56,915 nucleotides of DNA from a virus. Lineage: Duplodnaviria > Caudoviricetes. Below, piece by piece: positions 12,740 through 35,517 of the stretch (positions are counted from its first letter, which is position 1; each line of letters begins with the position of its first letter). The stretch spans positions 1 through 56,915 of IMG/VR virus record IMGVR_UViG_3300007735_000758; one strand, written 5' to 3'. The translations under genes and the position numbers were made by a program. Under the pieces are notes generated by a model. That model did not search any database, was not told the origin of the DNA, and saw only the letters and a program-made list of their open reading frames with translations.

Positions 12740-12785
12740 ATCACCATCATGCCCTAAATATCTGTATGCCGATACAATTCATAGT

Positions 12786-13028
12786 ATGGAAAAAATTGAA
12801 CAGCTCCTTTCTGACCTTCGAGTCGAAGCGGCTGAAAGCAGAGTTCACCTTGCTCACATCTCAGAGCATCTAGCAAAGCTAAACGGGCGCACCCAAAAAA
12901 GCGAAGAAAGAATTTCCTCGCTAGACACTGAGATCCAAAGCGCCAAGAAAGCATGGACAGCCGTTGTAGCAATTGCCTCTGGCGTTGGAGCAACATTATC
13001 TTGGCTTTACAATTTCCTGTCGAAGTAA
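12786..13028 (+). CDS. Coiled-coil protein with C-terminal TM helix (XhlA/holin-like)
   Basis: 80 aa from ATG 12786; hydrophobic AWTAVVAIASGVGATLSWLYNFL; followed by a terminator. Confidence 0.6.
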   Translation: MEKIEQLLSDLRVEAAESRVHLAHISEHLAKLNGRTQKSEERISSLDTEIQSAKKAWTAVVAIASGVGATLSWLYNFLSK

Positions 13029-13060
13029 AAAAAGGCCCCTCTTTCGAGGAGCCTATTTTT
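13026..13060. terminator. Probable bidirectional intrinsic terminator
   Basis: A-run, imperfect stem AGGCCCCTC-TTTC-GAGGAGCCT, then a T-run; between convergent genes. Confidence 0.7.
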
Positions 13061-13131
13061 ATGCCCAAACCAACAGGAGGACCGAACAATCGGAGGAGGT
13101 GTCCGGTACAAGACTCCTTTATCCTAGCACA

Positions 13132-13392
13132 CTACTTCTTGCCTGAGACGTAAATTTCGTAAGCGCCGTCTACTATTAGAAAATCTTCTTCTTTGCTTTG
13201 CTCTTTCCTGGGATCTACCAAACAAGACGAAAGCCAATTTGTAATGTGGGCGATCTCGTACACAACGATGCCTCTCTTGGTTTTAGAAAAGATGGGGCCG
13301 TACCCTACACTGCGCCAGTACTTTAGGCAAGGCACGGAGACTTTCAGGTACTTCGATAGCTCCCTCTCCGTTACGACCTCTTCTCTCTTCAC
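13132..13392 (-). CDS. AlpA/excisionase-type HTH protein
   Basis: TERELSKYLKVSVPCLKYWRSVGYGP...VYE...WL. Confidence 0.75.
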   Translation of the reverse strand: MKREEVVTERELSKYLKVSVPCLKYWRSVGYGPIFSKTKRGIVVYEIAHITNWLSSCLVDPRKEQSKEEDFLIVDGAYEIYVSGKK

Positions 13393-13395
13393 GCA

Positions 13396-13656
13396 CTACG
13401 AGCATAACAGCTTGAATGTCCTGCGCCCCGTAGTGAACCCCTGATACTCTGCGCCGATCAATTCTTGCCCCGTTAGCTCTTTAATGAACGGTGCCAGGGA
13501 ACGACACCACTCCTCCCCCTCCTCCACCTTTGCCTCCTCTCTCTGGCGCTCCTCTTCGAGGATCTCGCAAACCTCCTCTGCGCTGCCGCCTTCCTTCTCT
13601 ACACGCTTCATCGCGCAACGCATCGACTCCATCTCAATCAATTGTTCTTTATCCAT
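13396..13656 (-). CDS. Acidic hypothetical protein
   Basis: 86 aa; TACAAT 8 nt upstream of the ATG. Confidence 0.5.
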   Translation of the reverse strand: MDKEQLIEMESMRCAMKRVEKEGGSAEEVCEILEEERQREEAKVEEGEEWCRSLAPFIKELTGQELIGAEYQGFTTGRRTFKLLCS

Positions 13657-13706
13657 GTAGACAGATTGTATACCACAGACTGCTACAGCGCCACATAAAA
13701 TTGCTA

Positions 13707-13735
13707 TTGCGATTGCGATCAGGGTGCTGTATGAT
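13707..13735 (+). promoter_or_regulatory. Sigma70-like promoter pointing into a non-coding region
   Basis: TTGCGA-17 nt-TATGAT. Confidence 0.55.
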
Positions 13736-14020
13736 GAATGTGCCGAAAGGTTCTCAGGCAGACGTTATGGTGGCTGCATCACCACTGAGATAGCCATGGA
13801 TTCAAGAAAGCACTGGTGAGACGACAATAATTTTCCATAGGGCCGCAGTTCAAAGAGCGGTACTGAGTTCTGGTAGCCACCCACTATCGGCATTCACCTA
13901 GAGAATCAATGCTTACGCTCTAGGTCAAAGAGATGACGGGCCAGGGACATTGGGATGCCTTGGTCCAGCTTGGAAACCGAAGGAAAAGGATCAGACCCGA
14001 GATATTGCATATACCTTCCT

Positions 14021-14130
14021 TCTTATCTATATTTTAGATGCAATTCTATAATGTATAGATAAGAGTATATTATCTTAGATATTCTATAGATTATATACAA
14101 AGCCTACGCGCTGGATCTGTATATGGTATA
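14021..14130. other. AT-rich segment with an 11-bp inverted repeat (candidate replication origin)
   Basis: TCTTATCTATA (14021-14031) / TATAGATAAGA (14054-14064) in a strongly AT-rich intergenic tract. Confidence 0.4.
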
Positions 14131-14476
14131 TCCCAAGAAAAGCCCTATTGTCTTTTTTTTGGATAAGGGGTAGCGCGAAGTGACTGGCTAACACTATTGA
14201 GCAAAGGAGAATCACCGTTGTTCTGGAAGTGGCAGCGTGGAAACTGTGGACCTTAGCCAGTCTCTTGGCGTTATCACCAGATAGCGTTAGATTTAAAAAT
14301 TCACACAAGGAAAAAAATAAAGGCAAACGACAAAACGGAAAACCCACAACTACCCGACAGCCCCCGCCTGAGCAGCGGGGGCGAGCTAAAGCAGGTTAAG
14401 CAACTTTAACAATACGCGCCAAGTTTAGGCACGTCCCTCCCTCCTGCTACTCCCTGAAAAGCATAAGCTATTGAAT

Positions 14477-14704
14477 ATGCTAGGGAAACCGCTCCTACTC
14501 GATACTGACGTTGCAAAGCTAACAGGTGCCTCTGTGTCCTCCGTACGCAAATGGAGAAGCCAGAATAGAGGACCGTGCTTCTTGCGCCTTGGTGCATCTG
14601 TACGATACAAGGAAGAAGATGTGCTACACTACATGATGTCTGGCACACTCTATGAGGAAACAGGCATCAAGATAAAAAGGAATAAACGTAGTGAAAGACA
14701 ATGA
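14477..14704 (+). CDS. AlpA/excisionase-type HTH protein
   Basis: LLLDTDVAKLTGASVSSVRKWRSQNRGPCFLRLGASVRY. Confidence 0.8.
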   Translation: MLGKPLLLDTDVAKLTGASVSSVRKWRSQNRGPCFLRLGASVRYKEEDVLHYMMSGTLYEETGIKIKRNKRSERQ

Positions 14705-14985
14705 CACTAAGCGAAATGATGAACAACAATATGCCGATTGAACCGCTTCTCCGGGAAGGCGATGTCGCGAAGATCTTGAACGTATCGGTTCAGCAGATCC
14801 GCACTATGCGCCGGATCAACACTGGGCCGAAGGTTACCAGGATTGGCGCTCGTACCGTTCGCTACAGCCCTTCGGATATTCGGGCATATCTAACGTCCTT
14901 CCAGCCCAAACAAACGAACCAGGAGGCTCCTGTGGCGCAGAAGCATCCCTCTACAACGATGTTGGTCGAGGACATCTTCAAATGA
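14701..14985 (+). CDS. AlpA/excisionase-type HTH protein
   Basis: LLREGDVAKILNVSVQQIRTMRRINTGPKVTRIGARTVRY. Confidence 0.85.
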   Translation: MTLSEMMNNNMPIEPLLREGDVAKILNVSVQQIRTMRRINTGPKVTRIGARTVRYSPSDIRAYLTSFQPKQTNQEAPVAQKHPSTTMLVEDIFK

Positions 14986-15185
14986 GCGTGAGCATGAGCG
15001 AAAACAACGAAGACATTGGCTTTGCCAAGATTACCGAAGTCGCCAAGTACCTCAACATCTCTAAGGCAATGGTAAACAAGATGCTGCACAAAGGACAGAT
15101 CCCGTATACCAAGTTTGGGAAGGTATACCGGATTCCGTGGGCGTGGCTTAAACAAGCCGCCAAGCCCAAGCAAATCGAACAATAA
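14982..15185 (+). CDS. Excisionase-family HTH protein
   Basis: EVAKYLNISKAMVNKMLHKGQIPYTKFGKVYRIP. Confidence 0.85.
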   Translation: MSVSMSENNEDIGFAKITEVAKYLNISKAMVNKMLHKGQIPYTKFGKVYRIPWAWLKQAAKPKQIEQ

Positions 15186-15208
15186 ACCCAAACCAACAGG
15201 AGGAAGAT

Positions 15209-15496
15209 ATGACAGTTGATGACTGGAGAGTTAAGTACGAGATTTTAAACGCCGAGACCGACCGGCTGCGGGCGGAGGTCGAGCGGCTGCGGGAGGACGC
15301 AGCGCGGGCGCGGTGGTGCGAGGAGAACAAGGCCGATGTCGTGTGGGACTGGCGCGGAAACCAATGGCGCTGCGAGAACGGAGACGACATGTGGATGGAT
15401 CAGGACAGGAACGCCGCCATCGATTACGTGCGCAGGGGCGTGCCGTTTTGGCAGTCGCCAACCGCCGAGGATCAGCAGGAGGGACGCAATGTCTGA
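15209..15496 (+). CDS. Hypothetical phage protein
   Basis: Strong SD AGGAGG; coiled coil followed by DAARARW...DQDRNAAID. Confidence 0.75.
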   Translation: MTVDDWRVKYEILNAETDRLRAEVERLREDAARARWCEENKADVVWDWRGNQWRCENGDDMWMDQDRNAAIDYVRRGVPFWQSPTAEDQQEGRNV

Positions 15497-15608
15497 CCGC
15501 CAAGCCGCCGAAGACCGCGACGATCTGGCGCGGGAGCAGCGGGAGAACAGACGAGAACGAGAGGAGTATTTGGAGGACGAGGAGAACACCTATGGAAAAC
15601 AGGATTGA
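15489..15608 (+). CDS. Small acidic protein (39 aa)
   Basis: SD GGAGGG upstream of ATG 15489. Confidence 0.5.
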   Translation: MSDRQAAEDRDDLAREQRENRREREEYLEDEENTYGKQD

Positions 15609-15945
15609 TCTGGACGCGCTGGAAGCGGCGCTGGCGAAGAAAAGCGAGAAGCCGTGGGGATGGGCGGATTGCGTGTCGGCGTGCGTAGAAAATATGCCCG
15701 CCCTCATCGCCGAGTTGCGGGAGCTGCGAGCGCGGGTGACGCCGGAGGTAATCAGGGAGAAGCACAAGGACGGCAACTGGTGGCTGGTGTGGAGTCCTTT
15801 GGGTAACCAGTGGTATAAAGCTCTGTGGCATAACGGCCATTGGGAGATGACCGGAAGATTGGGGTTGTTTAATAAAGCCACCCACGCCCTCCCGCTCCCG
15901 CCTGCGTTGGAGGTGCGGCGCGGGGAGGAGGTGCTGGATGCGTGA
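15592..15945 (+). CDS. Hypothetical phage protein
   Basis: SD AGGAG; C-terminal ATHALPLPPA resembles DUF551-type ends. Confidence 0.65.
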   Translation: MENRIDLDALEAALAKKSEKPWGWADCVSACVENMPALIAELRELRARVTPEVIREKHKDGNWWLVWSPLGNQWYKALWHNGHWEMTGRLGLFNKATHALPLPPALEVRRGEEVLDA

Positions 15946-16144
15946 TCCGTTCGTAGATCCCCAGCCGGGGGATGTCATAGAAGTAAACAAACTTAAAGCT
16001 TGGATCGTAAAAGAACGAACAGATGAATCAGTAGTGTTTGATGCAGACGAACCGGGAGCCGTAGAGGAATGCGAGTTGCCCTTGGGGGCATGGCAATCAG
16101 CACTAGAGAGAATAAAGACTGCTCGTGTTATTTGCCGAGGCTAG
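15938..16144 (+). CDS. Hypothetical protein
   Basis: MRDPFVDPQPGDVI; SD GGAGG. Confidence 0.7.
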   Translation: MRDPFVDPQPGDVIEVNKLKAWIVKERTDESVVFDADEPGAVEECELPLGAWQSALERIKTARVICRG

Positions 16145-16154
16145 GAGGAGAAGA

Positions 16155-16334
16155 ATGAAGACGGCGCTGTTTGCCTTGCATTTTGCCTGTCAATGGACAG
16201 TTTTCGTACTGCTCTGGCGATATGTGGTGAGGCCCGAAAATGATTGGATGATCTGCGCCCTGGCGGCAGGATGTTGGCTTTGGGTGGCAGTCGTAGGCGT
16301 AATCGTTGGCATATGGATCAAGAACACCTTTTAG
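16155..16334 (+). CDS. Small two-TM membrane protein
   Basis: SD AGGAGG; two hydrophobic stretches. Confidence 0.65.
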   Translation: MKTALFALHFACQWTVFVLLWRYVVRPENDWMICALAAGCWLWVAVVGVIVGIWIKNTF

Positions 16335-16342
16335 GAAAACGC

Positions 16343-16732
16343 ATGGAACAAGTAAATCAATTAGAAAAGAAGTGGCCTAGAGAACACGATGCTGTTATCG
16401 CAGAGAAGGTAGAAGGTCTAAAGATAACAACAGAACGCTTCAGCGCCGGGGTAGAGGGCCGTACTACTACATGGAATCGGTACTTCTACAACAACCCTGA
16501 TTGGGGGATGATTGAGATTCCTTCCTACAACGAACCCAAGCATTTCTTTCGCGCCCTAGAGAAGTGGCGGAAAGAATCAACAAACCGATACTGGGTCATC
16601 GAATCAAGCTATGGGGCAGACGGTGAGATGGCTTGTTATTTAATCAATACAAAAGAAGGTATTAGGGTTAACGAATACGGCAAAGACGCTCCAGCATGGG
16701 CGCTATACAAAACTGTAGTTAATGAAGTATAA
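16343..16732 (+). CDS. Hypothetical protein
   Basis: 129 aa from ATG 16343. Confidence 0.65.
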   Translation: MEQVNQLEKKWPREHDAVIAEKVEGLKITTERFSAGVEGRTTTWNRYFYNNPDWGMIEIPSYNEPKHFFRALEKWRKESTNRYWVIESSYGADGEMACYLINTKEGIRVNEYGKDAPAWALYKTVVNEV

Positions 16733-16763
16733 TAGAACAACAGGAGAGCAATAGGAATACAAC

Positions 16764-17015
16764 ATGAAGATCCATAAAGACGATCACGCTACACAGCCAG
16801 TAAGAGAAAAGATTGAAATAACGCTTCCATATTTAACCCATGTAGAACTTACCAATCTCTTTGTAGAAGAGGTCAACGCGCCAGGATATATCTTCGATTA
16901 CATCTACAATCACTTTGCGTCTAGGTTTCCTGAGTGGAAAGAGCATGGGTGGAGCGTTGTTGCTAGTTCCTCTTACGAAGGGTACATTGGTCTAATCGCA
17001 CGGAGGGAGCCTTAA
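16764..17015 (+). CDS. Hypothetical protein
   Basis: 83-aa ORF with SD. Confidence 0.65.
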   Translation: MKIHKDDHATQPVREKIEITLPYLTHVELTNLFVEEVNAPGYIFDYIYNHFASRFPEWKEHGWSVVASSSYEGYIGLIARREP

Positions 17016-17026
17016 GGCTCCCTTTC

Positions 17027-17323
17027 ATGCTTCTCCCTTCCCCTACCTGCCTAATCTGTTCTGCGCCAAGACACAACAAGAGAGACGGCCCTTACTGCCT
17101 AGAACACGTTCGAGAGCGCCACAGGAACAACCAGAGGCGTCTCTACGGCACAGACCCTAACCTACCTCCCCCCGCGCCAAGAAAGTTCCCTAGAGGCTGC
17201 TGTAGCGTTTGCGGCGCTACTCCCTACAAGGACGGTAAGTGCAACATTTGCTTGAAGATATACAAGCAGATCAAACAAAAAAAAAGACAATCCAACAAGG
17301 AGAAGATGTGCAGGAAGAATTAG
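17027..17323 (+). CDS. Cys-rich (Zn-binding) protein
   Basis: CLIC...CLEH and CSVC...CNIC. Confidence 0.6.
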   Translation: MLLPSPTCLICSAPRHNKRDGPYCLEHVRERHRNNQRRLYGTDPNLPPPAPRKFPRGCCSVCGATPYKDGKCNICLKIYKQIKQKKRQSNKEKMCRKN

Positions 17324-17420
17324 ATTGCAAAAAATTGAAGCTGCGGCTAGATGCCGTGGATGTGTTGATGGAGAAGAAGGAGGAAGCGCAGCGGGTGATG
17401 GGTGGACTGCGGGAGGGGAA

Positions 17421-18428
17421 ATGTGGCTGAGAATACCTACATCTCACTGTTCTCCGGCTACGGAGGACTCGACCTCGCCGTCCGACGCGCTTTGCCAGAG
17501 GCTCGCTGTGTCTGCTACGTGGAGAGGGAAACTCCTGCGGCCGCAATCCTGGCGTCTCGCATGGAAGACGGAGGGCTGGAGGACGCGCCTATCTGGTCTG
17601 ACATTGTCACCTTCCCAAGCCGACTGTTTCGTGGCCGCGTGGCTGGACTCGTTGGCGGGTTCCCCTGCCAGGACCTCAGCGTTGCAGGGCGACAAGCCGG
17701 AATCGAGGGAGAGCGAAGCGGATTGTTTTTTGAGATCGTCCGACTCGTTCGCGAGTTGGAGTCCGTCGAGTGGCTCTTTCTTGAGAACGTCCCGCCAGTT
17801 CTCAATTTTCCAGCAGGAACAACCGTTCTTGGAGAACTTGCCGCGCTCGGGTTCGATGCGGAATGGGGAACTTTACGAGCGTCCGATGTTGGTGGATCGC
17901 ACCGGCGAGAGCGGGCGTTTGTGCTGGCTTACCGCACGGGCCGAGGACTCGGAAAGCTGCGGGAATCATCCGGGGGCGGTGGATTTATTAACGGAGGGGC
18001 AGACGATGCACAGGCCGACACCCCGCACGATCACGGGCGGCGCGGAATCAGCGGAGCGGAAACAGGAACTGGGCAGGACGGAGAGCGGTGGATCGGGCCT
18101 GCAATCGGCAGCCGCCAACTGGCCAACACCAACCACCCGCGACTGGAAATCCGGCGAGGCGAGCGAGGAAACGATGAACAGGAACGCAAGGCCGTTATCG
18201 GAAATCGCCTCCCACTTTTCCCTCCCGGCCCCGCCGACCTCAACGCATGGCGGCAAGTCCCCGAGTGGCTCCACCCGGCGGTTGAACCCGGACTTCGTCG
18301 ACTGGCTGATGGGGCTAATACCCGGATGGACCGACTACGCGCCGCTGGAAACGGCGTCGTACCTCTCCAGGGTGCGGTCGCTCTTGCGCTCCTACTCGGG
18401 AGGGCGCGGTAGCCGCGTAAGCCTTTAA
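17421..18428 (+). CDS. Overlapping alternative-frame polypeptide carrying TRD-like PTP repeats and MTase motif IX
   Basis: Open across the whole MTase gene; RPTP, WPTPTTRDWK and RRLNPDFVDWLMGLIPGWT. Start position is uncertain. Confidence 0.65.
   Translation: MWLRIPTSHCSPATEDSTSPSDALCQRLAVSATWRGKLLRPQSWRLAWKTEGWRTRLSGLTLSPSQADCFVAAWLDSLAGSPARTSALQGDKPESRESEADCFLRSSDSFASWSPSSGSFLRTSRQFSIFQQEQPFLENLPRSGSMRNGELYERPMLVDRTGESGRLCWLTARAEDSESCGNHPGAVDLLTEGQTMHRPTPRTITGGAESAERKQELGRTESGGSGLQSAAANWPTPTTRDWKSGEASEETMNRNARPLSEIASHFSLPAPPTSTHGGKSPSGSTRRLNPDFVDWLMGLIPGWTDYAPLETASYLSRVRSLLRSYSGGRGSRVSL
17423..18412 (+). CDS. C5-cytosine DNA methyltransferase (main frame; motifs I-VIII and X)
   Basis: SLFSGYGG (I), GGFPCQDLS (IV), ENV (VI), HRRERAF (VIII), RLRAAGNGVVP (X); GTG start at 17423. 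Confidence 0.92.
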   Translation: MAENTYISLFSGYGGLDLAVRRALPEARCVCYVERETPAAAILASRMEDGGLEDAPIWSDIVTFPSRLFRGRVAGLVGGFPCQDLSVAGRQAGIEGERSGLFFEIVRLVRELESVEWLFLENVPPVLNFPAGTTVLGELAALGFDAEWGTLRASDVGGSHRRERAFVLAYRTGRGLGKLRESSGGGGFINGGADDAQADTPHDHGRRGISGAETGTGQDGERWIGPAIGSRQLANTNHPRLEIRRGERGNDEQERKAVIGNRLPLFPPGPADLNAWRQVPEWLHPAVEPGLRRLADGANTRMDRLRAAGNGVVPLQGAVALALLLGRAR

Positions 18429-18449
18429 TGATTTGCATGGAGAAAAAGA

Positions 18450-18839
18450 ATGGATGAAAACAACCAACCTAAACCTCCTTCCTGGGAAGAGGAAATCTTT
18501 GAAAGCATTAATCCTGGCACCGAAGAAAAGAAACGCGAGTTCTTAAAGCAAGGGACAAGCTGGCTGCGCTCCGTTGCCCCTGATCCTACGGCTGATTGGA
18601 TAGGCCCACACAGTGGGCTTAACTTTGGCCCCTTGGAGTTCAAGCAAAAGCAAACTCCTCTCCCTGCGCCAGAGATTACCCCCACCTCCCTACTCTATTC
18701 CCTACAAGCATTCGATGCAATTGTACAGAAGGTCGTAGAGATAAATGCAGGTAGGTGGATCTTCCCGGAAGACGCTCCTATCCTCGTTCGCGCCGTGTTA
18801 AAAGCTATCGCAGAGGTCAACAATGCTCAACCCCGTTAA
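18450..18839 (+). CDS. Hypothetical protein
   Basis: 129-aa ORF with SD GGAG. Confidence 0.6.
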   Translation: MDENNQPKPPSWEEEIFESINPGTEEKKREFLKQGTSWLRSVAPDPTADWIGPHSGLNFGPLEFKQKQTPLPAPEITPTSLLYSLQAFDAIVQKVVEINAGRWIFPEDAPILVRAVLKAIAEVNNAQPR

Positions 18840-19368
18840 AGACATTCACGTCCTCCCCTGTAACGACAACCAATCCCACACCGAAGGAAAAGATTGCCCC
18901 TGCAATCCAGAAGTAGAAAATCAATTTAACGGCGTCTCCCTAATTATTCACAACTACTTCATGTACCCAAAGATCAACTTCTTAATCGGGCGCACCTGCA
19001 CCCAGGTAAAGGTCATAGACATCAATTCCCAAGCCGCAACAGAACTCCCCCGGCGCGGTGACGAGATAGACGACTGCATCACCTTCACAACAGAAGACGG
19101 CACACTCACCATGCGCCATCAACAAGATTGCTGCGAAGCCGTACAAATCAAACAAATAGACGGCGACATCAACGACCTCGTCGGAACACCCATCCTCAAT
19201 GCATACTGCGAAACCAACCCCGTAGAAGATCTAGATTACGGAATAGGACAATGGACCTTCTATCGCCTCCAAACCGCTAAAGGCCCTGTCGTCATCTCTT
19301 GGTACGGAGAGTCCAACGGATACTACTCCGTAGAAGTAGACCTTATATGGACACCAAATACTCAATAG
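18823..19368 (+). CDS. Hypothetical protein (His/Cys N-domain plus DCCE...ESNGYYS domain)
   Basis: HVLPCND..H...CPCNP...IIHN followed by HQQDCCE...WTFY...WYGESNGYYSVEV. Confidence 0.75.
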   Translation: MLNPVKDIHVLPCNDNQSHTEGKDCPCNPEVENQFNGVSLIIHNYFMYPKINFLIGRTCTQVKVIDINSQAATELPRRGDEIDDCITFTTEDGTLTMRHQQDCCEAVQIKQIDGDINDLVGTPILNAYCETNPVEDLDYGIGQWTFYRLQTAKGPVVISWYGESNGYYSVEVDLIWTPNTQ

Positions 19369-19628
19369 ACGAAGAACAACCGAAACATCACTCCAGCAAA
19401 AACCGTAAGGCATGGTGCAAAGGAGTAGAAGGCAGACACCACCAAACTACCCTCGCGCCAGCAAAGTACTGCACAGAAGAAATTAAAACCCTCGTAGAAC
19501 TCTGCACAAAATGCGGCAAACACATCAACTACTTCTGGAAACCATACCTCCTCTCCCCTCGCTCCAATAGAGAATGGCAAATATGGGACGAAGCATGGAC
19601 CCGATACAGAGAACAACGTAAGCTCTAG
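19338..19628 (+). CDS. Hypothetical Zn-binding protein (start approximate)
   Basis: KAWCKGVEGRHH...C...CTKCGKH. Confidence 0.55.
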   Translation, partial: RPYMDTKYSIDEEQPKHHSSKNRKAWCKGVEGRHHQTTLAPAKYCTEEIKTLVELCTKCGKHINYFWKPYLLSPRSNREWQIWDEAWTRYREQRKL

Positions 19629-19657
19629 CAGAGCCTAAATCTAAATACACACTCCGC

Positions 19658-19689
19658 AAAGGCTGGATAAACACCAGCCTTTTTTATTT
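19658..19689 (+). terminator. Intrinsic terminator ending the plus-strand block
   Basis: AAAGGCTGG-ATAAACA-CCAGCCTTT followed by a T-run. Confidence 0.8.
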
Positions 19690-19741
19690 GCCGCAGTGTA
19701 AATAAATATATCTGGGCGCAAGCAGGGGACCCAAATGGTAA

Positions 19742-19890
19742 GGGGGGGGGTCGGTTGGAGCAGGTGGAAGAAGGTGGGAGGGGATGGGGGAAATAAGGGG
19801 GGGGTAAATGTGTGGAATCGGATGTGTGGAGTACTATGCATACACACACCACCGCACCTCCCCTACTCCCCCTCCCCCACCCCCGTGGGG
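19742..19890. other. G-tract then C-tract segment at the 3' end of terS (candidate packaging/genome-end signal)
   Basis: G9 at 19742, G8 at 19797 and several other G runs, followed by C runs at 19857-19884. Confidence 0.35.
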
Positions 19891-20480
19891 GCCTCCGCTA
19901 CCGCCTCCAGCATCAAGCCACCAGGGCTAACATCACCATCCATGTTAGTAACATCAGAGTAAGTGGTAGTAAGTGAGTTAGCGCCATGCGTCTCCATGTT
20001 ACCAAGTAACATAGTTAGTTTGGCTCGCAACACATCGCCGAGTGACTTATTCAACTCAGCATTACTCTCGTTTGATGATGGCTCTTCGAAGATACTCGCG
20101 TATCTTGTTTTACCTACAAGCTCTAGTGCTTTCAGCCTGGTTATGTCTGAATCGGTGTTAGTTGCGGTATTAGTGAGGCCGTCCATGACGAACTTACGGA
20201 GCCTGGTCTTATCCTCCCACCAACTTGCCATTCTCTCCGCCTCCATTGCTTGTATCGCTACCGCAACATTAGGCTTCTTACTAACCTTCACCGATTGCAC
20301 TCTACCAGCGTTTGCGTTCCCATTCCACTTATACGCTTGCCTGTAGGCTTCCGCCTTACTAAGCCCTCCAAACACCAACCCCTCTGCAAACTTTCTCTGT
20401 TTCGGCGTTAACTTGCCTACTATCTCCTCTAGCGTGAGTTTCTTTCCATCCTGATAAACCCTAGTTACTTTGTTACTCAT
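19863..20480 (-). CDS. terS: Terminase small subunit
   Basis: LTPKQRKFAEGL...AEAYRQAY HTH, KPNV..AI and RLKALELVGK. Confidence 0.8.
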   Translation of the reverse strand: MSNKVTRVYQDGKKLTLEEIVGKLTPKQRKFAEGLVFGGLSKAEAYRQAYKWNGNANAGRVQSVKVSKKPNVAVAIQAMEAERMASWWEDKTRLRKFVMDGLTNTATNTDSDITRLKALELVGKTRYASIFEEPSSNESNAELNKSLGDVLRAKLTMLLGNMETHGANSLTTTYSDVTNMDGDVSPGGLMLEAVAEAPTGVGEGE

Positions 20481-20612
20481 GCGACTATATTAACACATAT
20501 TAATCTATCCTTTCGCATATAAGGAAACACGCGCGCGCGGTTTCCTTTAATCGCAAAAAAACACCAAACGAAAATTGCGGCGGCGGGCCCCACGAGCGCT
20601 ATTTCCGATAAG

Positions 20613-20706
20613 TCCTTTGTTTTCAACAAAACCCCCGAAATCTGGGACTTTTTTGGGAGAACATTAAAATCCCTCAATAATCGCTATCTCGTTGAAAACA
20701 AAAGGA
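20613..20706. repeat. Inverted repeat pair
   Basis: TCCTTTGTTTTCAAC (20613-20627) / GTTGAAAACAAAAGGA (20691-20706); perfect 12-bp core. Confidence 0.8.
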
Positions 20707-20760
20707 TTGGCCGGATGGACTTTCCTATAAACGGCGTGATTGAATAGTTGACAGTGGTGA

Positions 20761-21024
20761 CGCCGCCGCCTCAGGGCTGATAAACGTAAGCCGACCATCA
20801 CGAAATAGCCTGGAGAGACAACCAGGCGACAGCACGCCAAACGGACAGTTTGTGATGCTGACTGAGTCAGGAAAAACCTTGCAGCCGCTTTAGGGCAGAT
20901 AAACGTAAGACGAGGTTGTTCGATGTTGACGGTCAGCGGCATGGGCGGATGTTCCCCTATAACGTGCCGATGTGTCTTAGCATATAATCTCGCCGCCGCC
21001 TCAGGGCTGATAAACGTAAGCCGA
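20761..21024 (+). repeat. Module A, 34 nt x3 (20761-20794, 20880-20913, 20991-21024)
   Basis: CGCCGCCGCCTCAGGGCTGATAAACGTAAGCCGA; copies 1 and 3 are identical, copy 2 matches at 28/34. Confidence 0.95.
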
Positions 21025-21179
21025 GCTTACAAGCTAAGATTCTCTCAGCCAACTACCAGTTAACGGAGTAAGTCACTAGGTAGACGTTGATCGTATCCAA
21101 TAGGAAACCCTCACGCGCAAGTAACAACGTGACGTTAAAGCCATAGCCTATGGCTTGTTGAGCAATAAATGCACGCGTT

Positions 21180-21484
21180 GCCGAAATAACAGTAACCATA
21201 ACGGTGAATACATAGTAGGCGCATAAGCATAGCATTTAGCGGAGAAACACGCACCTACGGGAGCATCCGTCTAACGCATAATTGAACACTATAGGCACAC
21301 TGGTACTAACGTGTAAGTGATCCGGTCACTTACAGTCATATCATGTTGGCGCGTGGTAAAGGTAAGCGCCAAACAACGCAGAAGCGATAGCAAGTGGAGC
21401 GGGACAGGCGCGCTGATATATGGCACTCCGTCAGTAAATCAGAGCCGAAATAACAGTAACCCTAGCGGTGAATATACAGTAGGC
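21180..21484 (+). repeat. Module B, 41 nt x2 (21180-21220, 21444-21484)
   Basis: GCCGAAATAACAGTAACC-n5-GGTGAATAYAYAGTAGGC; 37/41 identical. Confidence 0.95.
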
Positions 21485-21670
21485 CAGAATTGAATAGGAA
21501 CTATATATTAGATTAAACGCGAATAAGTTAAGTAGCGAGATAGTAGAAAAAGCCAAATCTATAATGGGTCCGGTGCAAACTGGACCCATTTACCATTTAG
21601 CAACTAAATAAAGCCACATTCTGACAAGTGTGGCTCTATGTAGTTTCTAAACTACCAACAGGAGACAATT

Positions 21671-22348
21671 ATGACAACATACCACATCACGATGAAATCA
21701 CAGAACGGTAAAACCGGACCGATTCCGGTTACCACTACTAGTAAAGAAACTTGTTTCACTGGTTGCGGGCAGTATGAGAACTGCTACGCGAAACAGGGGC
21801 CTCTGGCGCTCCACTGGAACAAAGTCTCTGACGGGTCGCGCGGAATGACCCTGGCGCAGTTCTGCGCCGCTATCGAATCGCTTCCCGAGGGTACGCTCTG
21901 GAGACACAATCAAGCCGGGGATCTCCCCGGCGCTGATGGTAACATCGACCGCCGCGCATTGACAGATATCGTGATCGCCAACCTCAACAAACGTGGGTTC
22001 ACCTACACCCACAAGCCCATGACGCAGGAGAACGCCGGGATCGTGAAGAACGCTAACGCGCTTGGGTTCACCGTGAACTTGAGCGCCGATACCGTGGCGC
22101 AAGCTGACGAGTATGTATCGCTGGGCGTTGCTCCGGTAGTCCTCACAGTGCCGGAAGATACCCGCGCCAACTTCACCACTCCAGCGGGGAATAAAGTCGT
22201 AATCTGCCCCGCCGAAACCAAGGGCGTGACCTGCGCCGATTGCAAGCTTTGCGCGTGGTCGGGCCGGAAGGCTATCATCGCTTTCCCCGCTCACGGATCG
22301 AAGAAGAAGGCCGTCACCGCCGACAAGGTGTTTAACATCATCGCATAA
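21671..22348 (+). CDS. Gp88-like Cys-cluster phage protein
   Basis: NGKTGPIP, TCxxxCxxxxxCYA, RHNQAGDL, FTYTH and C-terminal CP....TCADCKLC; SD AGGAG. Confidence 0.65.
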   Translation: MTTYHITMKSQNGKTGPIPVTTTSKETCFTGCGQYENCYAKQGPLALHWNKVSDGSRGMTLAQFCAAIESLPEGTLWRHNQAGDLPGADGNIDRRALTDIVIANLNKRGFTYTHKPMTQENAGIVKNANALGFTVNLSADTVAQADEYVSLGVAPVVLTVPEDTRANFTTPAGNKVVICPAETKGVTCADCKLCAWSGRKAIIAFPAHGSKKKAVTADKVFNIIA

Positions 22349-22401
22349 GGGCTGACAACAGCCCCAAGTGGTATCAACAAAGGGTAGCTACGGCTACCCT
22401 T
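22349..22401 (+). promoter_or_regulatory. Tandem hairpins upstream of csx16
   Basis: GGGCTG-ACAA-CAGCCC and AAGGGTAGC-TACG-GCTACCCTT (cUNCGg loop); no U tract. Confidence 0.55.
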
Positions 22402-22433
22402 GATTGGTGACACTTCACCTATTGGAGAAAGTT

Positions 22434-22757
22434 ATGTATATCATCATTTCGCGGCACCCTGCCGCTATCGATTTCATCCGCGCCAACGATGCGCGGTTTT
22501 TGACGGCGCCCGTCATCACGGGCAACGCCACGCCCGAAGATGTTCGGGGCAAGGTGGTAGCGGGTAACATCCCGCTATCCCTCGCCGCACTAGCAGACGA
22601 GGTCGTCGCCGTGGAGTTCTCCGGCGCACCGCCTCGCGGCGCGGAGTACACCGCCGCCGACATGGTCGCCGCTGGTGCGCGTCTGGAAGCGTATGTGGTC
22701 AAGCGCAGTATTGCGTTTGACTACTGCGTCACGCACTCGCGAGCTGACGCATTTTAG
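22434..22757 (+). CDS. csx16: Csx16 (Cas_VVA1548)-family protein; candidate cA4 ring nuclease / anti-type III CRISPR
   Basis: ISRHPAAIDF...VVAGNIPLSLAA...RGAEYTAADMVAAGARLEAYVV matches the recalled Csx16 pattern SRHPGA...VIGTLP.HLAA...RG.EL...GARL..Y.V; SD GGAG. Confidence 0.75.
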   Translation: MYIIISRHPAAIDFIRANDARFLTAPVITGNATPEDVRGKVVAGNIPLSLAALADEVVAVEFSGAPPRGAEYTAADMVAAGARLEAYVVKRSIAFDYCVTHSRADAF

Positions 22758-22820
22758 TCGAAACACGGGTATAACCCGTGTCTGCGGGAATTAGCCTACC
22801 CGCACTGAAGAGACAGGCTA
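22757..22820 (+). ncRNA. Type II hammerhead ribozyme with 3' pseudoknot
   Basis: GUC-GAAA, stem III CACGGG/CCCGUG, UC cleavage site, stem I UGCGGG/CCCGCA, CUGAAGA-GAC. Loop I UAGCCU pairs with downstream AGGCUA. Confidence 0.9.
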
Positions 22821-22834
22821 GGAGGATTGATTGT

Positions 22835-23089
22835 ATGTTGAATAGAAAGACCGTACGCGCCGCCAGGGTGCGGTTTGTTGAGGCGCTGTACAAGCGCCAC
22901 GCTGTTTCTGGGCTCCGTCAGGGCTACGATATCGCCCTGACTATTAGCATGAGAACAGGCGTCCCCGTGGCCGCTATCGTGGCTACCAAGGGTGAAGATA
23001 GCCTGACGTGGGGGTCATCCAGGATCAAACGCCACAAGGCGTGGAAATCGCTATTGCTGGAAGCAGACTTATTACTGGAGGTGGACTAA
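22835..23089 (+). CDS. Hypothetical basic protein
   Basis: SD GGAGG at 22821-22825, ATG at 22835. Confidence 0.65.
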   Translation: MLNRKTVRAARVRFVEALYKRHAVSGLRQGYDIALTISMRTGVPVAAIVATKGEDSLTWGSSRIKRHKAWKSLLLEADLLLEVD

Positions 23090-23172
23090 TGGATTGGTCC
23101 GACATCCTCGACGGCTTCGCCTTCATGGGCGTAGCCGCTATCCTTTTGGTGATCTACATCACCATTTACTAA
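23089..23172 (+). CDS. 27-aa single-TM microprotein
   Basis: TAATG overlap, SD GGAGGT; MDWSDILDGFAFMGVAAILLVIYITIY. Confidence 0.6.
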   Translation: MDWSDILDGFAFMGVAAILLVIYITIY

Positions 23173-23227
23173 CAAATAACTGACCAGATTTGGGCAGTCT
23201 AAACACAAGACAACCAATAGGAGTAAT

Positions 23228-23413
23228 ATGAAATACGCAGAAGCAAAAAAGATCGTAAAAGAATTGGGCATGAAGTTGTCCCTGAATCGAGACTACAACG
23301 AGTATCGCGTTGCTCTACCAGGAGAAGATGCAGAGGCATCTGCCTACTACACAGAAGACCTTGAAGACGCCGTTGGGACAGCCAAGGCGATGACTCAGTG
23401 GGGGTTGCAGTAA
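23228..23413 (+). CDS. Small phage protein (EYRV...YYTEDLEDAVGTA type)
   Basis: 61 aa, SD AGGAG. Confidence 0.75.
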   Translation: MKYAEAKKIVKELGMKLSLNRDYNEYRVALPGEDAEASAYYTEDLEDAVGTAKAMTQWGLQ

Positions 23414-23694
23414 TGCTATTGACTACCAAATATCCCGGCACCTGCGGATCGTGCGGTGCCTCTATCAGCGCGGGGTCTCGCGCCAATTATCAGAAGTTGT
23501 TGGGCATCTACTGCCCGACCTGTCCTACGCCGAAGCGCAAGGGCAAGGCGACAGGCCAACGCCTTTACTCGCCCTATCGCCCTGCTGGCTACTACGCCAG
23601 CAAGGCTGACCCTCGCGGCCTGTACACTCCAGAAGGGAGATGTGTCGGGCGCATGGCGTGCGGCCACGAGGACTATCCCTGCTGCGGCTGCTAG
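23413..23694 (+). CDS. Small Cys-rich protein ending CGHEDYPCCGC
   Basis: KYPGTCGSCG...CPTC...CGHEDYPCCGC; TAATG coupling. Confidence 0.75.
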   Translation: MLLTTKYPGTCGSCGASISAGSRANYQKLLGIYCPTCPTPKRKGKATGQRLYSPYRPAGYYASKADPRGLYTPEGRCVGRMACGHEDYPCCGC

Positions 23695-23782
23695 CGTACT
23701 GACCAAGCACATTCTATGAGTGTGCTTGGATGAGTACACTGTACTCTGTCCAAATTTGGACAAACCAACTAGGAGAAAACCT

Positions 23783-24346
23783 ATGCTTACAAAGTTAAGC
23801 CTGATGATCCAAAAGATCGTATCGAAGGAAGCGTCCCGCTTCACCCTGAACGGGATCTTAATTACCAATAAAGAGACAGTGGCAACGGACAGCCACCGTC
23901 TAACACGGGTCAAGCACCTGTTCGTACAGGACAAGATGGACCGTCACGTAGTCCTGAAGGCGACAGATGCCATCTCGCTGTCTAAGATGGCAGGGAAGGA
24001 ACCCATCGAGGTTATGGGGGCCACTGCCGCAGACATATCCTTCCGCACCAGGGCGAGTAATACTACCTTCGAGCCGCTGGAAGGTAGCTTCCCGGATTAC
24101 CTGCGGGTTATCCCGTCTAAGACGGAAGACCATATCTGTATCATCTTCAACCCCAAGATGATGCAGGGTCTCATGGAGATCCACGGCGCTGCGGATGATT
24201 GCGTGCGGATGTATGTTCACCCGCGCAATCCCAACAACAACGCCATCATCCTCGAATCTGCGCGGGAAGATGGGCAGGACGTGCAGTCTCTCTTGATGCC
24301 CGTGCGAGACGCTGATGGGTACAAAGCCAGGAGGTACAGTGTCTAA
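23783..24346 (+). CDS. DNA polymerase III beta-clamp-like protein (partial clamp)
   Basis: SRFTLNGI, VATDSHRL, EGSFPDYLRVIP, FNPKMM, LLMPVR. Confidence 0.75.
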   Translation: MLTKLSLMIQKIVSKEASRFTLNGILITNKETVATDSHRLTRVKHLFVQDKMDRHVVLKATDAISLSKMAGKEPIEVMGATAADISFRTRASNTTFEPLEGSFPDYLRVIPSKTEDHICIIFNPKMMQGLMEIHGAADDCVRMYVHPRNPNNNAIILESAREDGQDVQSLLMPVRDADGYKARRYSV

Positions 24347-24358
24347 ATTTGGACACTT

Positions 24359-24742
24359 ATGAACACAAAAAAACTTACTTCGCATATCCTCTCGCTGCTA
24401 CTGCAACACACAATAGCAGTGACATGGAAAGATGGGACGAGTGGACGCGCCTGGGTAAAAACTAGGCGCGTTCGCTTGCGTCCTGTCAAGACACAGAAGA
24501 CCTACGCTGTTGCTCTTCACGAGATCGGTCACATCGTAGGCGACCAACCCAAGGCACGGCTAGACCGTGAAGCTGCGGCCTGGGAGTGGGCTATGCGTAA
24601 CGCTCTGAAGTGGACGCGCATAACCCATGCCACAATGCAACGCTGCCTCCAGTCTTATATGGATGCAGCCCAGCGCAAGCGGTACAAACCTTCGCCCCGT
24701 GCGAGCCGCTTGCTAGTGTCCAAATTTGGACAGGAGGATTAG
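24359..24742 (+). CDS. Small HExxH zincin-like metallopeptidase
   Basis: ALHEIGHIV...REAAAWEWA. Confidence 0.7.
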   Translation: MNTKKLTSHILSLLLQHTIAVTWKDGTSGRAWVKTRRVRLRPVKTQKTYAVALHEIGHIVGDQPKARLDREAAAWEWAMRNALKWTRITHATMQRCLQSYMDAAQRKRYKPSPRASRLLVSKFGQED

Positions 24743-24745
24743 TAC

Positions 24746-25018
24746 ATGACCCTACCAACCATCCATCTTAACGGCACGGACCCCCGTGACCTGCTGCAAG
24801 ACGTTCTGGACGCTTTAACAGCGATCAGAGAAGCCATCCGGGCGCTGGATAAAACAGCGCCCAACGGGCGAGACTACTACCCCCAGGGCGGCGATGCCCT
24901 GGGGCTGGCCTTCGGAGAGTATCTCCTACGGAGAGATAGCCTGTGCAATGTTCTGAAAGAACTTGAGCAGATTGCCGAATACTTGAGCGACAAAGCAGTA
25001 CAGCTCAATCGCCTTTAA
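24746..25018 (+). CDS. Hypothetical phage protein
   Basis: PTIHLNGT...PNGRDYYPQG; SD GGAGG. Confidence 0.8.
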   Translation: MTLPTIHLNGTDPRDLLQDVLDALTAIREAIRALDKTAPNGRDYYPQGGDALGLAFGEYLLRRDSLCNVLKELEQIAEYLSDKAVQLNRL

Positions 25019-25057
25019 CTAACCAACAAGTGTCCAAATTTGGACAAAGGAGAACAT

Positions 25058-25309
25058 ATGCTTACGCCAGAATTAATATACGAAGCCATGAGACATGGCT
25101 ATAGCTGGGGAATGTGCGAGGCCGACCTCGATCTTGAGCAAGGTAGATGGCGAGAGTGGGTGAACGGCAACTATTGCGGGTGGTTGCCCAAGGATGACGC
25201 CGAGCGCACAGCTTACGAAGACCTATTAGACCGCTGTGCAAAGACGGCGTACGAGATGATGCGCGATGCCTTCAAGGCCAACCAGGAGGCAAAGTGCGCT
25301 ACGCTTTGA
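25058..25309 (+). CDS. Hypothetical protein
   Basis: SD AAGGAG directly after a palindrome copy. Confidence 0.7.
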   Translation: MLTPELIYEAMRHGYSWGMCEADLDLEQGRWREWVNGNYCGWLPKDDAERTAYEDLLDRCAKTAYEMMRDAFKANQEAKCATL

Positions 25310-25497
25310 TGTCCCGGTCTAACGAAGGCGATGAATGGAATGACGCAGGGTACGCAAGTACCCTAAGCCAACTGAAAGAGTTGGCGCAGTGCTGGATCAT
25401 GCAGTACATGGCAGTAGACATGGAGAGAGGTCTGGTAGCAGACCTCAACGTAACTCCTCGATCCTGCACCCTTGCAAGCAAGTGGAGGAAAGCATGA
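25294..25497 (+). CDS. Hypothetical protein
   Basis: GTG start with SD AGGAGG. Confidence 0.55.
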   Translation: MRYALMSRSNEGDEWNDAGYASTLSQLKELAQCWIMQYMAVDMERGLVADLNVTPRSCTLASKWRKA

Positions 25498-25667
25498 GCC
25501 ACACAAGGCGGGAAGGCCCCCGCTGCTACAACCCTGCCTTAGTCCGCCTACCTGACGGTACCTACGGCACCTTCCCGTTCGGTCATCCTATGCCGGAAGG
25601 CGCTGTCGTTATCGAGCGCCGGAGTACAACAGGATGGCGCAAGGTGCGAGAGTGTGAGTATGCGTGA
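25494..25667 (+). CDS. Hypothetical protein (57 aa)
   Basis: SD GGAGG; ATGA overlap. Confidence 0.6.
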   Translation: MSHTRREGPRCYNPALVRLPDGTYGTFPFGHPMPEGAVVIERRSTTGWRKVRECEYA

Positions 25668-25767
25668 GCGTATAAACCAAATCCTCGACACCGTTACACA
25701 CTTCTGCTTCGCGTATTTGCCGTACATCGTAATCCTGGGTGCGGCATTCTATTTCTTCAGCCGATAG
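25660..25767 (+). CDS. 35-aa single-TM microprotein
   Basis: MRERINQILDTVTHFCFAYLPYIVILGAAFYFFSR; stop codon abuts the palindrome at 25768. Confidence 0.5.
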   Translation: MRERINQILDTVTHFCFAYLPYIVILGAAFYFFSR

Positions 25768-25792
25768 TGTCCAAATTTGGACAGGAGATACT

Positions 25793-26107
25793 ATGCAAGA
25801 TTTCACATTAGGAACGTGCCAAGCCATGACCTTTGAGGAGTGGGCGCTCAGCCAACTGCTCATGATATGCAGACCCGATGGGTACCTCGATCAGACCAAG
25901 GATGGGATTCATTCCACCTACCTCGTCGAGAAAGTTCGCGCCCTAGTACTGGCGCTGGACCACGGCGACGAACTCCAGTACCGACTGGATGTTGCCCAGC
26001 TTGACCAAGACGAGCAGGAGATCCGGCACCTGCTCGAAGTTATGAGGTCGCGAGATCTCGATGGCGCAGGCTTCTCGCCGTACGTTGGAGGGCAAACGAT
26101 CCAATGA
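25793..26107 (+). CDS. Hypothetical protein
   Basis: SD AGGAG overlapping the palindrome end. Confidence 0.7.
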   Translation: MQDFTLGTCQAMTFEEWALSQLLMICRPDGYLDQTKDGIHSTYLVEKVRALVLALDHGDELQYRLDVAQLDQDEQEIRHLLEVMRSRDLDGAGFSPYVGGQTIQ

Positions 26108-26202
26108 CAGTTAAAGAAATCATCGAACTTATTCTCATCGCACCACTGCTCGTGGGAATGTACTTCATTGCGTGGAGGGCGTGGAGGAATCTAGATCTAT
26201 GA
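26104..26202 (+). CDS. 32-aa single-TM microprotein
   Basis: ATGA overlap; MTVKEIIELILIAPLLVGMYFIAWRAWRNLDL. Confidence 0.55.
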   Translation: MTVKEIIELILIAPLLVGMYFIAWRAWRNLDL

Positions 26203-26324
26203 AGATTCTCAAGCTCATCGACGAGCTAAACGAAGCAATCATAGACGTTGTTGGCATGATCCTGTCAGGCGTGGCTGCGCTAGTATTATGCGCCATCATC
26301 TACTGGATCATTTCGCTACTGTAA
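26199..26324 (+). CDS. 41-aa single-TM microprotein
   Basis: ATGA overlap, SD GGAGG; hydrophobic C-terminal half. Confidence 0.6.
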   Translation: MKILKLIDELNEAIIDVVGMILSGVAALVLCAIIYWIISLL

Positions 26325-35131: not shown

Positions 35132-35517
35132 TCAACGATCCCTTTATGCCGGAAAGCATGACGGCTAAAGGGGAGCATGGAGAAATCGTACAGAAGAGAG
35201 ATGCTAGCGCAGCGATGTATCGCATCGCTGCAACGATCTCCACCAGTCTCAAGTTCCTCCCCCTAAAAGCAGTTAAACTATCCATCATCAAAGAGGATAC
35301 ATACGGCATCCAGGACTACAGTGCGTTCCTAGATGTTTGCGTTCGCATCCTCTGGAGGGCTGGAGTAATCGACTGCATGACAGGATCCAGCGTAAAGTCT
35401 GTCGAGATGACACACAACAAGACAGACCGGAGGAAGGTTGTCATCCTGGTCACCCCTCTTAAAACCCGAGAAGTTTTGATAGACCAACTCGAAAACGAAG
35501 CGGCAACTCTGATTTGA
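35053..35517 (+). CDS. Hypothetical protein, possibly a degenerate RusA fold (start uncertain)
   Basis: LKAVKLSI...QDYSAFLD...L.RAGVID...V...KVVILVTP. Confidence 0.45.
   Translation: MGNPDAIAEEPEERILPRKGQPIRIIINDPFMPESMTAKGEHGEIVQKRDASAAMYRIAATISTSLKFLPLKAVKLSIIKEDTYGIQDYSAFLDVCVRILWRAGVIDCMTGSSVKSVEMTHNKTDRRKVVILVTPLKTREVLIDQLENEAATLI

Follow-up and report, generated by a model that had tools for sequence, protein, structure and literature searches.

GOLLD and ROOL are phage-carried noncoding RNAs of several hundred nucleotides with many covarying helices. The ToxI, CptI and TenpI arrays of type III antitoxins repeat a small RNA unit in variable copy number within mobile elements, and the CsrB/RsmZ sponge RNAs present one short invariant motif on varied stems, again with a copy number that varies between relatives. 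Here we describe a candidate noncoding RNA of ~900 bases, previously uncatalogued, in a small group of freshwater bacteriophages. It lies in IMG/VR virus record IMGVR_UViG_3300007735_000758 (hereafter the window), a complete record whose 56,915 bases include a terminal overlap of 127 and which represents the 56.9-kb genome of a freshwater podophage. A unit that we call Module A, in which a fixed asymmetric internal loop is predicted between a closing stem (P1) and a short GC hairpin (P2), occurs three times in this region; we are fairly confident that it is an RNA fold kept by selection inside a larger structured RNA.

At gathering thresholds, Rfam 15 gave no match on the whole window, including GOLLD, ROOL, riboswitch aptamers and ribozymes. 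With E-values up to 10 on 20400-21750, 12 matches were obtained, none overlapping Module A and none an antitoxin; the best of them, BjrC68, scored 27.4 bits against a cut-off of 39 and falls on the terminator region. The RNA is similar to GOLLD and ROOL in size, phage carriage and number of covarying helices, but neither model matches it, it contains internal repeated modules (Module A and a second one, Module B), and it has been found in five viral contigs to date. The likeness to CsrB/RsmZ is one of logic and would imply multivalent capture of one partner. However, the fixed motif of Module A, AAACGUAAG, is placed in an asymmetric internal loop instead of as GGA in hairpin loops, only one to three copies are present, and these are part of a much larger RNA with long-range helices. 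Since none of the P2 loops in the nine known copies contains GGA, we do not regard this RNA as a member of the sponge family.

An earlier sequence-only reading of the window had compared the repeat with type III antitoxin units on account of its size. The 34-nt core is indeed of similar size, but each Module A unit has its own closing stem, the copies are not arranged head-to-tail (Tandem Repeats Finder, 0 rows on 20300-21800), 77-85 nt of conserved structured sequence separates them, and Rfam, which holds a ToxI model and CRISPR-DR families, returned no match. A search for ToxN/AbiQ, CptN, TenpN or other toxin or defence families by the region left 19 of 20 open reading frames (ORFs) without a PADLOC match, the remaining one being Csx16, and Pfam and PHROGs revealed no ToxN-type family among the neighbouring ORFs. 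Because the copies are not tandem and no toxin gene is present, Module A is not a type III antitoxin. It also resembles the RNA anti-CRISPRs (Racrs), which are likewise phage RNAs from intergenic sites that combine a short GC hairpin with a conserved tail, and it has an early region and a neighbouring candidate anti-CRISPR gene in its favour; Racrs tend to adjoin acr genes (PMC10651486). Neither Rfam nor the species genomes described below revealed a likeness to a CRISPR repeat. Unlike a Racr, Module A is enclosed by a stem and embedded in a 0.9-kb structured RNA, and it is not solitary, since its gaps of 85 and 77 nt are below the 100 bp within which a solitary repeat has no other repeat, as defined in PMC10651486.

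Module A and the structured region around it

The 34-nt core is located at 20761-20794, 20880-20913 and 20991-21024, direct copies spaced 119 and 111 nt apart whose gaps hold unique sequence; a repeat search placed the boundaries at 20756-20798, 20875-20917 and 20986-21028. Exact matches to GATAAACGTAAG in the window number three, at the Module A sites only, while up to two mismatches gave seven matches, the other four with two mismatches each, where shuffles average 3.0. Each copy has a different closing stem: GUGGUG/CAUCAC (20754-59/20796-801) plus an inner CG/CG in copy 1, AACCUUG/CGAGGUU (20875-81/20911-17), extendable to 20871-20921, in copy 2, and CUCG/CGAG (20989-92/21022-25) on an outer stem UCUUAGC/GCUAAGA (20975-81/21033-39) in copy 3. 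Copies 1 and 3 share the inner hairpin GCC-UCAG-GGC, flanked in copy 1 by the 5′ strand CCGCC and the 3′ strand UGAUAAACGUAAGC; copy 2 has GCU-UUAG-GGC instead, where one U.G pair keeps the pairing. Positions, gaps, stems and inner hairpins are all as the sequence-only reading had given them, and the stretch it had called invariant, AAACGUAAG, is unchanged in all nine copies from five phages.

These nine copies come from the covariance-model search which that reading had proposed. Model R1, built from five copies of Module A, found exactly nine in five related phages, at 36.6-77.9 bits and on one strand only; the five are the window and the contigs L091, L092, L093 (= L090) and L100. Eight other relatives that carry the gene for a small-terminase-like (TerS-like) protein, the left neighbour of the region, contain no copy, and 77 chance loci picked by pattern all stayed at or below 28 bits with R1. 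The exact core pattern occurred as 68 single matches in 185,579 species (one genome each), about the number estimated by hand from the information content of the pattern and the collection size. No match belonged to an array, and R1 gave each of them at most 28 bits.

From 5′ to 3′ the consensus consists of P1, C-N-GCC, P2 in the form GCC(C)-UNNG-(G)GGC, NN-A[U/C]AAACGUAAG-N and the 3′ side of P1. The closing stem has 4-10 pairs and ends in an inner CG/CG. It differs among the copy 1 orthologues in L091, L092, L093 and L100, and further versions among copies and orthologues include AUAGCG/CGCUAU, GUGAUCG/CGAUCAC and UAGCG/CGCUA. Both sides have changed in seven of the nine closing-stem pairs. 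In the nine-copy alignment, which was fitted to the model and so favours structure, 87.5% of cells are paired, compared with 30-45% in controls with a slid partner, and none of 500 shuffles matched the observed values. Five copies have a P2 of three pairs, and a paired insertion of C and G lengthens it to four in the other four; its loop is UCAG, UUAG, UCCG or UUCG. While the stems vary, the unpaired C-N-GCC and A[U/C]AAACGUAAG strands remain constant. The P2 variant is uniform within a phage (UCAG/UUAG in the window, UCCG in L091 and L093, UUCG in L092 and L100), which points to concerted evolution or a shared partner.

Pairing of the flanks was assessed by folding the 12-nt flanks of each core together and comparing them with 4,000 random window positions. 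The summed energy of the three window copies gave P = 0.0008; across all nine copies, flank pairing was better than at least 87% of random positions, with P ≤ 0.036 in eight of nine. An iteron or duplex binding site is a conserved sequence that needs no intramolecular pairing, whereas seven of nine P1 pairs are compensated here and the insertion in P2 is paired. The natural covariation of the stems thus contradicts the possibility, raised in the sequence-only reading, that the stems are neutral and the core acts as a double-stranded DNA site.

Module A is located in a stretch of about 1 kb (20678-21670) that contains only short, unconserved ORFs. For the sequence 20692-21610 together with its four homologues, RNAalifold predicts 124 pairs in 27 helices. 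In the alignment from which this structure was itself derived, 49 of the 124 pairs have changed on both sides, compared with 6-12 in slid controls, and 90.5% of cells are paired, compared with 29-42%. Two long-range helices are kept in all sequences with the region: helix 22, of 11 bp, which reaches ~130 nt across the second copy of Module B (six of 11 pairs compensated, 98% paired), and a helix of 8 + 7 bp (15 bp) across ~240 nt. Copy 2 of Module A is itself enclosed by long-range helix 7. The hairpin between copies 1 and 2 (Table 1) keeps six of six pairs in all five phages, with no unpaired cell and a conserved 8-nt loop, and stands between conserved AAAUAG and CGACAGCACGCCAAA. Module B is 41 nt long, its two copies are 90% identical, and its 3-bp ACC/GGU hairpin, with a variable loop, is held between two similar fixed strands, GAAAUAACAGUA and GAAUAYACAGUA. 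Modules A and B have a design in common, a fixed internal loop around a tiny variable hairpin.

No ORF inside the region belongs to a family in Pfam, PHROGs or PADLOC, and no conserved protein was found on either strand. A minus-strand protein over copies 1 and 2 (20664-20942) was considered and rejected: it has no family, its matches to relatives are short patches in shifting frames, and L090 has no such ORF.

Copy number ranges from one to three (1, 1, 2, 2 and 3 per genome). Copy 1 is present in all five phages, copy 2 in three, and copy 3 in the window only, L090/L093 being among those that lack it. A DNA contig from freshwater run X6, a natural variant without copy 3, joins 20980 to 21035 by a single A, so that copy 3 is a 54-nt insertion polymorphism (20981-21034) in the tip of the small hairpin UCUU-AGAU-AAGA. 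In place of copy 2 (window-equivalent ~20860-20930), L092 and L100 have an unrelated module of ~70 nt inside the same covarying long-range helix; its hairpin also covaries (CAUCG-GUAA-CGAUG versus CGUCA-GCAA-UGACG) and has GNRA loops.

The relatives were obtained by a two-copy pattern scan, which found one related viral contig, L090, and by a search with the TerS-like protein, which recovered this contig together with L091, L092 and L100; two more pattern scans, one of them with the Module B pattern, found the same four only. A scan of viral contigs with AGGGCNGATAAACGTAAG gave two chance matches inside coding sequence, and a two-copy 12-mer pattern in metagenome contigs gave six loci, all unrelated tandem satellites. 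Among deposited phages neither the region 20480-21670 (blastn) nor the TerS-like protein (tblastn) had a match, and no similarity to the region was seen upstream of the gene at 80 loci with homologues of DUF7227, the right neighbour. Several of these loci, in more distant relatives, have other short iteron-like repeats upstream.

The whole noncoding region is syntenic and alignable in all four related contigs. Its blocks are near-identical, while the downstream gene of L090 is barely related and the TerS-like proteins are only 56% identical; the noncoding region is better conserved than its flanking genes. Relatives without the region have the same operon layout with only 100-250 nt from the TerS-like gene to the next gene, which marks the region as accessory and places it where the genome is hypervariable. 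When the 70 window ORFs were compared with the contigs of five relatives, which are 50-100% complete so that absences are soft, no accessory phage protein tracked the presence or absence of the RNA.

Strand, promoters and expression

The asymmetry of tetraloops and wobbles points to a + strand RNA. Of 76 short hairpins, 12 are closed by GNRA or UNCG loops when the + strand is read and one of 76 when the minus strand is read, a count that leaves out one further + strand case inside a downstream ORF. The 11-bp helix has eight G.U cells versus one A.C, and P2 has two U.G cells and no A.C. A covarying terminator-like hairpin with a U-rich tail (Table 1) ends the region and is probably the 3′ end of the RNA; the homologous hairpin of L091 and L093, GGCGCAUG...CAUGCGCC with UAUUUCAUUUU, was flagged as terminator-like on the equivalent strand. 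The global G.U/A.C count is uninformative, since it was made on each strand's own prediction, which is biased towards that strand. Two more hairpins, at 21612-21655 (+), precede the ribosome-binding site of the DUF7227 gene and follow the terminator-like hairpin, AGCCACA/UGUGGCU and GUAGUU-UCUA-AACUAC; the latter is kept in relatives with other stem sequences, after a conserved CUAUGU.

Within the core, no convincing hexamers of a sigma-70, sigma-28 or similar promoter were seen by eye, and the promoter scan flags none at the modules. The sole candidate is TTGGGA-17-AATAAT at 20653-20681, present in the window and its closest relative only. Hairpin promoters of the N4 type, for a phage RNA polymerase, were rejected: no polymerase gene was found, and the 2377-aa protein of this phage is a polyvalent LPD-domain protein. 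This protein (35459-42592, minus strand) has LPD38, LPD23 and M78-like peptidase domains, showed no RNA polymerase domain, and is probably ejected with the DNA.

Several results weigh against reading the region as a + strand RNA with the predicted structure, in addition to the common origin of the whole-region structure and its pair counts. The wobbles of Module A as a whole are balanced, at six G.U versus seven A.C, and are for that reason uninformative on strand. The RNAalifold energies of the two strands are close (-66.4 versus -62.3 kcal/mol), and in four of the five phages the hairpin separating copies 1 and 2 scans as a terminator-like one of the opposite strand. Single-sequence folding of the three copies is weak (z = -0.3, -0.7 and -2.1), and because only five genomes are available, with several copies of common ancestry, the independent covariation events are fewer than the cell counts suggest. 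The promoter scan found no sigma-70-type promoter conserved over the five phages. Finally, the three RNA-labelled runs examined, two of them probably DNA, contributed a sole match, one identical contig of 173 nt (21232-21404) in metatranscriptome X20, for which DNA carry-over is possible. The same metatranscriptome has no contig on the genes flanking the region. As such contigs show neither strand nor level, and may stem from carry-over, we draw no conclusion from them on expression or on the uncovered parts of the RNA.

The phage and the genes beside the RNA

PHROG and Pfam scans identify a tailed phage, with portal, major head protein and large terminase on the minus strand and a block for replication and recombination that reads rightward (AAA ATPase, VWA protein, primase-helicase, exonuclease, Erf, resolvase and dUTPase). 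The large terminase shares 57% identity with that of phage 023Pt_psg01 and 53-55% with those of HTVC023P-type pelagiphages, and DNA near-identical to the window is present in freshwater, drinking-water and sediment metagenomes from several studies. The features of the RNA region and its neighbouring genes are collected in Table 1.

Table 1. Features of the noncoding region and the genes around it (window coordinates).
Feature	Position	Strand	Evidence or remarks
TerS-like helix-turn-helix protein, left neighbour	19863..20480	-	PHROG 51, E 3e-9; Pfam Terminase_2 below cut-off
Conserved ORF-free structured region, candidate large RNA	~20692..21600	+	Alignments, RNAalifold, pair counts, strand cues
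Module A copy 1	20754..20801	+	Covariance model 72.7 bits; flank pairing -7.7 kcal/mol, P = 0.03
Hairpin between Module A copies 1 and 2, GCCUGG-AGAGACAA-CCAGGC	20808..20827	+	Helix 4; 3 of 6 pairs compensated
Module A copy 2	20875..20917	+	Covariance model 69.8 bits; flank pairing -11.1 kcal/mol, P = 0.005
Module A copy 3	20975..21039	+	Covariance model 73.3 bits; flank pairing P = 0.13
Module B copy 1, GCC-GAAAUAACAGUA-ACC(loop)GGU-GAAUAYAYAGUA-GGC	21180..21220	+	
Module B copy 2	21444..21484	+	Best-conserved block of the region, in all five phages; inside the 11-bp helix
Terminator-like hairpin, GGGUCCGGU-GCAA-ACUGGACCC then AUUUACCAUUU	21566..21598	+	73 nt before the DUF7227 start codon at 21671
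DUF7227 protein, right neighbour, first gene of the rightward early operon	21671..22348	+	Pfam PF23872, E 5.5e-87
Csx16-family protein, 117 aa	22404..22757	+	Pfam PF09652, E 1.9e-8; PADLOC Csx16, E 8e-8

The TerS-like gene is transcribed away from the RNA region, and its protein is 55-65% identical in relatives. It is the sole recognisable small-terminase-like gene, adjoins the noncoding region in every RNA-bearing relative, and lies 7 kb from the large terminase gene (11198-12739, minus strand), with oppositely oriented accessory genes between the two. On the other side, in a comparison of L090/L093, L092 and L100, the DUF7227 gene is kept in L100 (96%) and replaced by an unrelated or barely related first gene in the other two.

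The RNA is encoded in the same hypervariable early region as the Csx16-type ring nuclease gene, which is two genes downstream. Csx16 was shown to be a cA4-specific ring nuclease (bioRxiv 10.1101/2024.09.24.614671), and on that basis the protein of this phage is a candidate anti-type-III-CRISPR enzyme. A 92% identical copy is encoded by relative G005, which is without the RNA, and the gene was not found in the contigs, themselves incomplete, of three RNA-bearing relatives; Csx16 and the RNA are therefore not linked. The hypervariable accessory region as a whole extends over 12754-26324, where 23 of 31 ORFs have no homologue in any of five related contigs, and it includes a DNA methyltransferase-like gene at 17325-18428. 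Besides the genes flanking the RNA, no window gene called in this interval is common to all five relatives' contigs. On both sides of the interval, the structural and replication genes show 50-97% identity.

Two further observations concern the DNA around these genes. Just upstream of the TerS-like gene, at 20523-20545, is a palindrome with an alternating CG run, GGAAAC-A(CG)5-GTTTCC. Relatives have different CG/CA-rich alternating runs at this site, and contigs of run X6 end there in similar loose ends; the palindrome could be a simple repeat that varies or a site for a protein. In the large terminase of G004 (C1:37695-40238) and G005 (C1:39424-41919), the window protein matches in two pieces ~0.93 kb apart within a single open frame of 845-849 aa, which suggests an intein or similar in-frame insertion.

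Possible roles of Module A

Based on the fold and its distribution, we tentatively favour a reading in which Module A docks a trans-acting partner multivalently, the partner probably being a host or core-phage protein. Module A would be a self-contained RNA hairpin module, with a P1 that is free to vary in sequence and holds the asymmetric internal loop, capped by P2 with its 3-4 bp and UNNG tetraloop. The module would be grafted one to three times onto different helices of a + strand RNA of ~0.9 kb, made from the accessory region that heads the rightward early operon. Its invariant internal loop would be the working surface, most likely docking one common partner, and copy number would set the valency, as in sponge or scaffold RNAs. 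We favour a protein of the host or the conserved phage core since no accessory phage gene co-occurs with the RNA. The sequence-only reading had called the repeat an aptamer-like or protein-binding unit. Stems kept by compensatory change around fixed unpaired strands are the pattern expected of such an RNA, so this description holds for the form of the module; that nothing separates a protein partner from an RNA or a small molecule weighs against our preference.

The module could instead be architectural, that is, a tertiary contact within the large RNA (a GNRA receptor or an RNA-RNA multimerisation element) that would steady the fold of the 0.9-kb RNA with no outside partner, which we consider unlikely. 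Tetraloop receptors look like asymmetric internal loops of fixed sequence, and peripheral elements are exchanged in large ribozymes in the same way as the copy 2 domain, which has been exchanged for a GNRA-hairpin domain in two phages; the long-range helices and several + strand GNRA tetraloops are also in keeping with such a role. However, against three modules in the window, a single GNRA-closed hairpin was seen there, the terminator one with its GCAA loop. A complement or partner motif for AAACGUAAG was likewise not found in the window, where extra inexact matches are at chance level, and a copy number of one to three that is polymorphic in one population fits dosage better than fixed architecture.

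A cis-acting signal of the early leader, controlling read-through into the early genes as a processive antitermination or RNA-polymerase-binding (put- or nut-like) element or as processing sites of a host RNase, is decidedly unlikely, although the region is directly upstream of the rightward early operon and is ended by terminator-like hairpins at most 73 nt before the first start codon, with several more inside. In phage T7, conserved hairpins that recur in the early RNA serve as RNase III sites, and these likewise have conserved internal loops along an early transcript. RNase III needs about two helical turns, however, far more than the 4-7 plus 3-4 bp of these stems; nor are the modules placed between genes, as the T7 sites are. 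By eye, the region has no boxA-like sequence. Because the downstream genes differ among the phages that share the RNA, it is not tied to a particular regulated gene, and relatives without it keep the operon layout.

An element acting as DNA appears improbable. This could be a set of hairpins formed by single-stranded DNA, for primase-helicase initiation or at an origin, or a duplex site, such as a pac site for the TerS-like protein or a site for a replication initiator. In its favour are the position between the TerS-like gene and the replication genes, the iteron-like short repeats upstream of DUF7227 in more distant relatives and the wobble counts of Module A, which favour neither strand; a UNCG loop, moreover, has in its complement a GNA triloop, a stable structure in DNA. 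Duplex binding sites would not be expected to show compensatory stem changes, though, and the whole 0.9 kb covaries, helices across 130-240 nt included. Spacings of 111-119 nt and grafting on hairpin tips are unlike iterons, and the tetraloop and wobble asymmetry favours a + strand RNA.

It is quite improbable that each module is an aptamer for a small molecule, binding a metabolite or nucleotide second messenger as a riboswitch-like sensor or RNA sponge. Riboswitch aptamers are typically recognised by covarying stems, unpaired nucleotides that stay fixed, a hairpin tip that varies and tandem copies, and Module A has covarying stems round fixed unpaired nucleotides, a variable hairpin tip and several copies. 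The phage also appears to meet cyclic-oligoadenylate signalling, given a nearby gene of the Csx16 family and the ring nuclease activity reported in the Csx16 preprint cited above. No expression platform follows any copy, however, no known aptamer class matches, and the Csx16 gene and the RNA are not linked across relatives.

Mimicry of a host RNA, either as a CRISPR-repeat look-alike of the Racr kind or as a decoy for an RNA-cleaving defence protein in the manner of a pseudo-ToxI, is very improbable: the hypervariable early region with its candidate anti-CRISPR ring nuclease would suit it, and the GC hairpin of the 34-nt core followed by AUAAAC presumably resembles the hairpin-plus-AUAAACCG end of type I-E repeats, but Rfam gave no match at E up to 10, no array with this core turned up in the 185,579 species genomes, the copies are neither tandem nor solitary and are accompanied by no toxin gene, and Racrs do not have closing stems outside the repeat.

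Multivalent docking by Module A leaves room for a more specific role, which we regard as a long shot: the 0.9-kb RNA may be a counter-defence or host-takeover device, an abundant early transcript acting as a phage-encoded RNA sponge, in which each Module A unit would bind and hold a protein of host immunity or regulation, or else a signalling nucleotide, for example a cyclic oligoadenylate. Few large structured noncoding RNAs with many covarying helices are known, and new classes have tended to reveal new biology; this candidate comes from uncultured freshwater phages. Module A is small and portable, having been duplicated, grafted on hairpin tips and swapped, and thus offers a compact handle of 45-65 nt on the partner and function of this RNA. 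Should that partner prove to be a factor of host defence or regulation, the phage would have an RNA-based means of taking over or disarming its host.

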